A stretch of DNA of 64,000 nt. Source: Escherichia coli. GTDB taxonomy: Bacteria; Pseudomonadota; Gammaproteobacteria; Enterobacterales; Enterobacteriaceae. Made by a program: the position numbers and the translations under genes. Numbering within the stretch: the first letter of the stretch is position 1; the number at the start of each line of letters is the position of its first letter. The DNA is taken from the NCBI RefSeq assembly GCF_003334315.1, contig NZ_QOWR01000018.1, one strand, 5' to 3'. The notes beneath the pieces are model-generated. The model worked only from the letters and a program-made list of their open reading frames with translations, was not told where the DNA came from and did not search any database. Shown here piece by piece: positions 29,084 to 29,942 of this stretch.

Positions 29084-29590
29084 GTGAAATTAGCTATCAG
29101 GCTTCAATTACCGCTGGCATTCGCATCAAAGGAGAGGAGCATGGAAATAAAACCAGAGGATTAGTTAAGCAATATCGTTTTATTTCCGATAAAAGAGGAT
29201 GACCCTCGTAATCAGGTTAATTTTCTTTATGAGCCATCGGAAAGACCATATTGCCATCACGCTTCTGTCCGGGTTGACGAAAAAGAGCGTCAGGTCCGCT
29301 GTAAAATCTGAGGTGCAGTTGTGGAGCCATTTGACTGGATGCTCTCTGTGGCGAAAAGAGAAACCAGACTGGCAGATGATGTAAGGCTCTTGCGCCAGGA
29401 GGAACGGGAAAGACGAAAAAATATAGAAAAGCTAATTCAGATTGAGCGTAACGGGAAAGCGCGGATACGCAGGGTGACAAAATCCAGAACTGAATAATTA
29501 AATTTAGCACTGTTAAAAATTTAATCCTTAACCGGAGGGATTTCTGCACCCTCAGAACATCAGGAGGCCGCCCGAAAGGGCGGTAGTTAA

Positions 29591-29728
29591 ATGCGAAAGT
29601 TTAAAATAATTATTGAAACGGGAATAGCCGGTGGAGATTTCGAGGATGAATTCGAAGTGGATAATGATGCGACGCCTGATGAAATACATGACGAAGCAAA
29701 AGATATTTTCTTTAACTACTGCAATTAA
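29591..29728 (+). CDS. Small acidic protein (45 aa)
   Basis: ATG after an AGGAGG-containing region with a perfect 6-bp hairpin (CCGCCC-GAAA-GGGCGG); 13 of 45 residues are D/E. Confidence 0.4.
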   Translation: MRKFKIIIETGIAGGDFEDEFEVDNDATPDEIHDEAKDIFFNYCN

Positions 29729-29765
29729 TCATATCACGAAATAAAAGACGAAGAGGAAGAACAAA

Positions 29766-29942
29766 ATGGCTGATTTTGGTTCAACTAAATACAACGTCGG
29801 TTTTGAAGAATGGCATGAACTGTTAATGGACTATGCAGAGTTACGTGGTGGCAGTGCTGCTGATGCTGAAGCATGGCGTGATGATTATGAAGCAGGAAAA
29901 ACTCCGGTCGAAGCATATTGTGATGAGTGGGGCGATGAATGA
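29766..29942 (+). CDS. Small acidic protein (58 aa)
   Basis: AAGAGGAAGA SD 6 nt upstream; about 15 of 58 residues are D/E. Confidence 0.45.
   Translation: MADFGSTKYNVGFEEWHELLMDYAELRGGSAADAEAWRDDYEAGKTPVEAYCDEWGDE

Follow-up and report, generated by a model that had tools for sequence, protein, structure and literature searches.

Two acidic genes at the locus

The locus described here lies in a stretch of 64,000 nucleotides (nt) from Escherichia coli (contig NZ_QOWR01000018.1 of assembly GCF_003334315.1), hereafter the window, and comprises two small open reading frames (ORFs) within what is read from its sequence as a decaying, lambda-like E. coli prophage of the Qin/Rac kind. ORF45 occupies positions 29591-29728 and ORF58 positions 29766-29942, both on the + strand, and they encode products of 45 and 58 amino acids (aa). 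A first-pass annotation of this DNA, in which the two were proposed as tandem early genes for DNA-mimic anti-restriction or anti-defence proteins, gave their coordinates and translations exactly, and its description of both products as about 25-30% Asp/Glu with few basic residues was borne out. ORF45 contains 13 Asp/Glu (28.9%) and 4 Lys/Arg (8.9%), ORF58 contains 16 (27.6%) and 4 (6.9%), and the isoelectric point (pI), proposed there as a check, is 4.05 for both. When all 180 ATG-initiated ORFs of 40-80 aa in the six frames of the whole window were compared, only these two combined at least 25% Asp/Glu with at most 10% Lys/Arg. Random ORFs of this DNA therefore differ from them, and their acidity is not a matter of chance.

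Both genes are already represented in RefSeq, ORF45 as a DUF7167 family protein (WP_001441843.1) and ORF58 as a hypothetical protein (WP_000753057.1), and a literature search found no paper that mentions DUF7167 or either accession. Their conservation was followed in 84 related copies, made up of 80 IMG/VR loci, three reference records and the window itself. The pair of DUF7167 gene and ORF58, whose conservation in related prophages the first-pass annotation had named as decisive, is present with unchanged spacing in 84/84 copies, and the per-site nonsynonymous/synonymous ratio, taken over distinct alleles, is 0.18 for DUF7167 and 0.12 for ORF58. Both families are therefore regarded as real genes under purifying selection. 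The mean net charge is -9.7 in the ORF58 family (range -4 to -15) and -11.9 in DUF7167 (range -6 to -16), and Asp or Glu is found in at least 70% of the sequences at 10 columns of the former and 14 columns of the latter. Judged from these alignments, acidity is a family trait in both cases, with acidic residues held at fixed positions across divergent homologues.

ORF45 as a truncated DUF7167 allele

The 45-aa length did not hold up as that of a native gene. ORF45 (29591..29728, +) matches Pfam family DUF7167 (PF23768; hmmscan E-value 2.3e-10, score 40.9, model positions 1-52 of 60) and phrog_1997 (E-value 2.1e-23), and over its 45 residues it is 93-100% identical to E. coli members of 60 aa. 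The usual E. coli form has 60 aa and the C-terminal end ...FFNYCNYSYHEIKDEEEEQNG. In the window, the alignment of the 84 copies places a premature stop, TAA, at codon 46 of the DUF7167 gene (29726..29728, +). This codon reads TAC in 76 copies, TAT in 1, AAA in 1 and TAA in 6, the window included, and the step from TAC to TAA in the window is a single-base difference from phage vB_EcoS-640R1. The former 3' end of the gene (29729..29773, +), recognised by alignment to intact copies, is now untranslated; the lost part consists of codons 47-60, SYHEIKDEEEEQNG, followed by the original stop TGA at 29771-29773.

Residues Y46, Y48, E50 and I51, which are 81-96% conserved among 27 homologues, are lost with the truncation, together with the acidic tail. 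ORF45 fits the family profile and lacks the C-terminal aromatic Y-x-Y-x-E-I segment of full-length DUF7167. It is consequently considered to be a nonsense-truncated allele and not a native gene, and the DUF7167 copy of the window is probably inactive. In the AlphaFold2 (AF2) model of the 60-aa protein, with a predicted local distance difference test score (pLDDT) of 88, strands at 2-8 and 17-23 are followed by a helix at 29-43 and a less ordered tail; the 45-aa allele, which is unchanged in many genomes, keeps the beta-beta-alpha part of this predicted domain. Profile searches extended the family to relatives with about 41% identity, one of them from Pseudomonas. Enterococcus phages are carriers as well. 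No solved structure of DUF7167 was found by sequence and profile searches of the PDB.

ORF58 as an intact phrog_519 protein

ORF58 (29766..29942, +) is an intact acidic protein of 58 aa whose reading frame is preserved in 84/84 copies. It matches positions 76-137 of the 143-position phrog_519 profile (E-value 5.5e-22), that is, the C-terminal module, and in comparison with phrog_519 it consists of the stand-alone domain only. Neither ORF58 nor any of the 34 homologues compared with Pfam has a match there. Among 1.84 billion cluster representatives, searched exhaustively, 62 are homologues, and most relatives are stand-alone proteins of 48-70 aa with 35-60% identity. The family motif is F-EEW[HY]..L...A...GGSAAD..AWR.DY.AGKTP.EAW.DEWG, and its elements F-EEW...AWR-DY-AGKTP-EAW-DEWG are shared between ORF58 and the phrog_519 homologues of Ackermannviridae and other phages. 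W37 is invariant and F13, W16, Y41, G44 and P47 are near-invariant in the family, and all six are present in ORF58; the profile match and the conserved F/W/W/Y/G/P positions both place ORF58 in the phrog_519 acidic helical domain.

The AF2 model of ORF58 (pLDDT 87) contains helices at 13-27, 34-42 and 47-55, a predicted three-helix bundle. A Foldseek search against viral models (BFVD) returned only uncharacterised homologues from Erwinia, Dickeya and Pseudomonas phages, and comparison with the PDB by sequence and profile brought no significant match. Members of phrog_519 have been listed as anti-CRISPR candidates by PaCRISPR score, a machine prediction without experiment (PMC9409062), and in the literature searched this was the sole mention of phrog_519 with a functional hint.

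Some variation in the family was also seen. An ORF58 variant of 72 aa from E. coli (P0001) carries an internal tandem duplication of DDYEAGKTPVEAYC. In phage phiSTEC1575-Stx2k (locus L004, 2503-2574), only the last 24 codons of ORF58 are present, directly before a DUF551 gene, so that the coding sequence of ORF58 contains a mosaic junction. Three long proteins with many repeats, P0149, P0156 and P0164, were rejected as relatives, being low-complexity or repeat matches.

Leader, ribosome-binding sites and gene overlap

Upstream of ORF45 lies a conserved non-coding leader of the cassette (29498..29590, +), in which an AGGAGG is followed by a hairpin, 7 nt and the ATG. The first-pass annotation credited both ORFs with good ribosome-binding sites. 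This is correct for ORF58, which has a Shine-Dalgarno sequence GAGGA (29753-29757) 8 nt before its ATG, inside the dead 3' end of DUF7167, but not for ORF45, whose AGGAGG (29562-29567) is 23 nt from the ATG with the GC hairpin in between. The hairpin, CCGCCC-GAAA-GGGCGG at 29568-29583, has a 6-bp stem and a GAAA loop, ends 7 nt from the ATG, and is present in the minimum-free-energy fold (z = -2.25). Among the 84 copies, 62 have a perfect stem, 4 have a compensated one (G to A with C to T), and about 15 show a single mismatch. Folding of the hairpin would bring the effective spacing between AGGAGG and ATG to 7 nt, a 'split' ribosome-binding site, and this AGGAGG is the only strong Shine-Dalgarno sequence of DUF7167. 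As a terminator the hairpin was rejected, since it has no T-run and is absent from the terminator scan.

The leader is kept in related loci despite a different upstream gene, and in phage ArgO145 the homology starts exactly at TCAGGAGG and the hairpin. The remainder of the leader, which measures about 95 nt in all, contains at 29498-29561 a second small hairpin, GGAGGG-N9-CCCTC, at about 29534-29553. This remainder may be a boundary at which modules recombine in mosaic fashion, or an RNA element with a regulatory role. No promoter-like or terminator-like site was predicted around the pair.

The apparent 37-nt gap between ORF45 and ORF58 is the dead 3' end of the DUF7167 gene. The two were first described as separated tandem genes; in the intact form, the TGA of DUF7167 (29771-29773) overlaps the ATG of ORF58 (29766-29768) by 8 nt (ATGGCTGA). 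A stop/start overlap of 8 nt is an arrangement typical of translational coupling, and therefore intact E. coli copies of DUF7167 and ORF58 are probably translationally coupled.

Neighbourhood and decay of the prophage

The gene order of the region can be seen from a near-identical prophage in strain 13P460A (RefSeq): integrase, excisionase, exonuclease, ydfD, dicB, repressor, cro, ydaT, O, DUF977, small genes, hokD, rem, ydfU, Q and lysis genes. DUF977 matches the PHROG 'Ren-like exclusion protein', and therefore the small genes belong to the nin-type, delayed-early part of the rightward operon. The assignment to an early region in the first-pass annotation is accordingly right in the sense of a delayed-early position downstream of O and the Ren-like gene, and not in that of an immediate-early position or the entry end; the pair lies downstream of cro, ydaT, O and Ren-like genes. 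Its statement that relBE, ydfV and flxA hold the corresponding place in K-12 Qin proved accurate as to position: flxA-ydfV-relB-relE stand there between dicC/ydfX/ydfW and hokD. Many E. coli chromosomes match the 1-kb region at 100% identity, and 2608 of 5426 complete genomes contain some part of it.

The genes on both sides of the pair are broken. The upstream neighbour of the phrog_1621 family (29084..29497, +) is a pseudogene with in-frame stops TAG at 29162-29164 and TGA at 29309-29311, as compared with the intact 137-aa gene of vB_EcoS-640R1, and is marked 'internal stop' by PGAP. The downstream neighbour of the phrog_660 family (29939..30304, +), whose ATG overlaps the stop of ORF58 (ATGA), is a pseudogene as well; it carries a 1-nt deletion in the A-run 30017-30023 (A7 versus A8 in the alignment to 640R1) and a stop, and is marked 'frameshifted; internal stop' by PGAP. 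A phrog_660 family gene follows the pair in 76/84 copies, with lengths from 65 to 171 aa. Four inactivating mutations fall in three of the four genes of this 1.2-kb stretch, and ORF58 is the sole intact gene. Further downstream, ydfU (DUF968, 31832-32881) has an in-frame TAA at 32372-32374 where 13P460A has GAA; the window and the 13P460A prophage differ at only 7 positions over 17.6 kb.

Just downstream of this run of pseudogenes a complete hok/sok module was observed. An Rfam match to the sok antitoxin RNA (99.9 bits, above the gathering score) adjoins the hokD toxin ORF (30693-30867 and 30862-31017), and a terminator-like hairpin follows hokD at 31086-31103. Between the downstream pseudogene and hok/sok, a very hydrophobic ORF of 72 aa lies at 30386-30604, with an internal ATG that would give 59 aa; it has no PHROG match and no RefSeq annotation, and may encode a small membrane protein.

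Distribution across phages and plasmids

In E. coli the pair and its leader move as a unit. In the window as in 640R1 they come after the O and Ren-like genes, whereas in the Shiga toxin 2 (Stx2) phage ArgO145 they lie among ead/Ea22-like genes of the exo-xis/Ea22 region; the gene upstream of the pair varies between phrog_1621, methyltransferase-like, DUF4406-like and Ea22-like genes and insertion sequence (IS) elements. Outside E. coli, DUF7167 and ORF58 occur apart. DUF7167 is followed directly by a DUF551 protein in Klebsiella prophages and stands alone in a Pseudomonas element; in a Klebsiella prophage it lies near RecT and a PD-(D/E)XK exonuclease, and it overlaps exonuclease genes, or adjoins them, in the replication clusters of Klebsiella Guernseyvirinae and Enterococcus Kochikohdavirus phages. 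ORF58 homologues follow the A replication gene and Dam in P2-like phages, and Dam and an Rv2179c-like exonuclease in another element. An obligate pair or a toxin-antitoxin-like module was rejected, because Klebsiella, Pseudomonas, P2-like and other elements carry one gene without the other, and is also disfavoured by the unequal number of records. By tblastn, 198 phage records contain the ORF58 family, and most of these are Ackermannviridae of Salmonella, Klebsiella and Escherichia. Among plasmids the family has 554 records, of which 516 are typed as conjugative; the figures for DUF7167 are 35 phage and 15 plasmid records. It appears from these data that DUF7167 and ORF58 are two separate, conserved accessory genes of mobile elements.

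The plasmid copies have settings of their own. In the IncI2 mcr-1 plasmid pZJ3920-3 (locus L102, 8348-10157), an ORF58 homologue with 88% identity is found in an operon of a CaiF/GrlA-type regulator, DUF1187, the ORF58 homologue, SPFH and NfeD, upstream of type IV secretion genes. Some 15.6 kb separate this site from the mobC/relaxase (oriT) side, and it lies beyond repA. A DUF1187 neighbour in most of the listed plasmid matches of about 60 kb at the same identity suggests the pZJ3920-3 arrangement there as well; the 80-90% identity band holds 412 records. In IncT and large Klebsiella plasmids, the ORF58 homologue lies within long one-directional arrays of small genes without known function.

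Phages EP_H11 (locus L100, 3006-3662, a 218-aa protein) and IME392 combine a NADAR domain with an ORF58-like domain fused to its C-terminus (71% identity to ORF58). As a general architecture this fusion was rejected, as it is confined to these two related phages. Actinobacillus phage vB_Apl-pPE4 (PP818812.1), attributed to Actinobacillus pleuropneumoniae, contains the E. coli-type cassette at 91-93% identity, which suggests that the phage has a broad host range or else that the sequence is mis-assigned or a contaminant.

Comparison with anti-defence proteins and lambda small genes

The database searches proposed in the first-pass annotation gave no known anti-defence match for either protein. 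ORF45 and ORF58 had no match to a known anti-defence or DNA-mimic protein in Pfam, NCBIfam, PHROGs or phmmer/hmmsearch comparisons with the PDB, and none in PADLOC, whose models cover defence systems only and not anti-defence proteins. Text searches of three anti-defence survey supplements (bioRxiv 2023.04.06.535777; bioRxiv 2025.06.06.658234, EVADES; PMC11541004) did not find the motifs or accessions, which is a weak test as the files may hold no sequences. Structure prediction, likewise proposed, gave confident small acidic domains for both families and no fold match to a known mimic.

In T7 Ocr, 34 of the 116 residues are acidic and 6 are basic (PMC3439906). The DNA mimics T7 Ocr, ArdA and T7 gp5.9 resemble ORF45 and ORF58 in being small, in having far more Asp/Glu than Lys/Arg with acidic residues conserved in position, and in being carried by phages and conjugative plasmids; however, they have no sequence, profile or fold relation to the two, whose predicted single small domains (a three-helix bundle and a beta-beta-alpha fold) differ from theirs. 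As to placement in the part that enters the cell first, the window genes are delayed-early and have no promoter of their own, the ArgO145 copy is in the pL-side Ea22 region, and the IncI2 copy lies past repA. Phage NADAR enzymes are reported to neutralise DarTG1 (PMC11825919), but ORF58 itself has no NADAR domain, and its link to counter-defence through the fusion is by association only.

The small genes of the lambda exo-xis region (orf60a/DUF1317, orf61, orf63/DUF1382 and ea8.5) share the niche of the ArgO145 cassette and are of similar size, being non-essential, mosaic, early-transcribed accessory genes of lambdoid phages. They differ in belonging to other protein families, the cassette of the window occupies the nin-type region, which is on the opposite arm, and the published effects on lysis and lysogeny concern other genes. 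An identity of ORF45 and ORF58 with lambda orf60a and orf63 was rejected, since those are annotated as DUF1317 and DUF1382, whereas ORF45 is DUF7167 and ORF58 is without a Pfam match. Lambda is not among the 35 phage records, listed in full, that match DUF7167, and a modelling paper on the exo-xis region does not cover ORF45 or ORF58.

Discussion

Both genes are ordinary, widespread and already annotated, and there is nothing unusual in the window itself. Considering the families as a whole, small size, negative charge and conserved acidic and aromatic positions make a stoichiometric acidic binder the most likely kind of protein, and it is proposed, tentatively, that the ORF45-type and ORF58 proteins may be small acidic decoys or inhibitors that bind other proteins. 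Domains of 55-60 aa with a net charge near -12 would be unlikely enzymes and presumably too negative to bind nucleic acids. In ORF58, the invariant aromatic and aliphatic positions F13, W16, L20, A24, W37, Y41, A50, W/Y51 and W55 are spaced as expected for the core of a helical bundle; in the model the conserved aromatics are most plausibly core residues, with many conserved acidic positions on the presumed surface. Such a protein would bind stoichiometrically to a positively charged and probably nucleic-acid-binding partner, either a host protein or one of the element's own DNA-metabolism machinery, and would be made once the pR-type operon is transcribed. In the window only ORF58 could still act, and with the coupling to the upstream gene lost it would need its own Shine-Dalgarno sequence.

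As to the target, the presence of these genes in temperate and virulent phages as well as on conjugative plasmids points to something common to enterobacterial hosts or to incoming DNA, and not to lambda-specific regulation. This broad carriage keeps counter-defence plausible as a target class, and the recurrent exonuclease, Dam, RecT and replication (P2 A) neighbours make a role in the element's own DNA metabolism plausible as well. The decoy reading draws on the truncation data, purifying selection, acidity, confident small-domain models, mobile cassette, wide carriage, DNA-metabolism neighbours, NADAR fusion, and lack of a promoter or terminator, a body of evidence that makes it quite possible while leaving it short of probable. 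Several points weigh against it: the NADAR fusion is limited to two related phages, and the IncI2 position, past repA and some 15.6 kb away from the relaxase/oriT side, is not clearly a leading region. Moreover, with three of four genes broken in 1.2 kb and a nonsense codon in ydfU, ORF58 may be intact by chance.

This last point leads to the view that the locus is functionally dead in this prophage, ORF45 being a pseudogene fragment and ORF58 spared only by its shortness, which is possible but doubtful. The four inactivating mutations spread over three of the four genes in this short stretch of 1.2 kb, the nonsense codon of ydfU (32372-32374), absent from the near-identical 13P460A prophage, the removal of conserved DUF7167 residues and the loss of translational coupling to ORF58 all fit it; however, ORF58 is intact in all 84 copies with a low nonsynonymous rate and retains its own Shine-Dalgarno sequence, and the 45-aa allele keeps the modelled beta-beta-alpha part and is unchanged in many genomes. 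A different role, as accessory subunits or modulators of the element's own replication or recombination, would make the proteins acidic adaptors that tune, for example, an exonuclease, an annealing protein or a single-strand-binding protein (SSB). The acidic C-terminal tails of SSB-type proteins act as modulators, and the acidic tail of DUF7167 is conserved. In its favour stand the exonuclease genes beside DUF7167 in Guernseyvirinae and Kochikohdavirus phages, the RecT and PD-(D/E)XK exonuclease genes near it in the Klebsiella prophage, and the P2 A gene, or the Rv2179c-like exonuclease and Dam, ahead of ORF58 homologues. The adjoining enzymes nevertheless vary by phage, with no partner family constant among them. 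The window pair does follow O and Ren-like genes, but the IncI2 copies of ORF58 are beside the CaiF/GrlA-type regulator, SPFH/NfeD and type IV secretion genes instead of recombination genes, and a cassette that is patchy among similar prophages and moves between regions fits better with a dispensable accessory gene. Such a replication or recombination role is judged rather unlikely.

That one or both proteins are DNA mimics for anti-restriction or anti-defence, as originally proposed, is now distinctly unlikely. Neither has any likeness in sequence, profile or fold to Ocr, ArdA, gp5.9, Arn or any solved mimic, and a single domain of 55-60 aa would cover only a short DNA-like surface unless oligomeric. 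The charge composition is indeed like that of Ocr (13 acidic versus 4 basic residues in 45 for ORF45, 16 versus 4 in 58 for ORF58), and acidic residues are conserved at fixed columns; the occurrence of the ORF58 family in phages and on conjugative plasmids is a pattern typical of ardA and other anti-restriction genes, the IncT and large Klebsiella plasmid copies are in long one-directional arrays of small ORFs, and Dam methylase genes are often neighbours. Yet the genes are delayed-early, after O and the Ren-like gene, or in the exo-xis region, and not at the usual site of entry-phase anti-restriction genes, the DUF7167 copy of the window is truncated, and both families are absent from the three survey supplements (the weak test noted above). 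Modulation of development or host physiology in the manner of the lambda exo-xis small genes, shifting the lysis-lysogeny balance or host expression through host regulators, is also quite unlikely. The ArgO145 cassette does lie among ead/Ea22-like genes in a region of exo-xis type, a DUF7167-like gene in a Klebsiella prophage is two genes after a DUF1317 (orf60a family) gene, and the IncI2 homologue shares an operon with a transcription regulator. Exo-xis small genes are known to affect lysogenisation and induction (PMC3824215, PMC6213356, PMC5575149), which speaks for such a role. On the other side, the families differ from lambda orf60a (DUF1317) and orf63 (DUF1382), and the ORF58 family is commonest in virulent Ackermannviridae, which have no lysogeny decision.

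A bolder form of the decoy proposal would make the ORF58 family an unrecognised, broad inhibitor in counter-defence or host takeover, which occupies the nucleic-acid-binding surface of a common host protein, with DUF7167 as a second, independent inhibitor of the same kind. The inhibitor would be an acidic three-helix domain of about 55 aa that temperate and virulent enterobacterial phages have in common with hundreds of conjugative plasmids. This form is rather unlikely, although the ORF58 family is a reasonable candidate for anti-defence screens. For annotation, the 45-aa ORF is best recorded as a truncated allele of DUF7167 in a series of pseudogenes, and the 58-aa ORF defines a family that is still without a Pfam entry or a functional study. 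If the ORF58 family did neutralise a host defence or DNA-binding protein, a very small inhibitor would be present in Stx phages, in the Ackermannviridae employed for phage therapy and on mcr-1 IncI2 plasmids, and this would have a bearing on phage host range and on the spread of plasmids.

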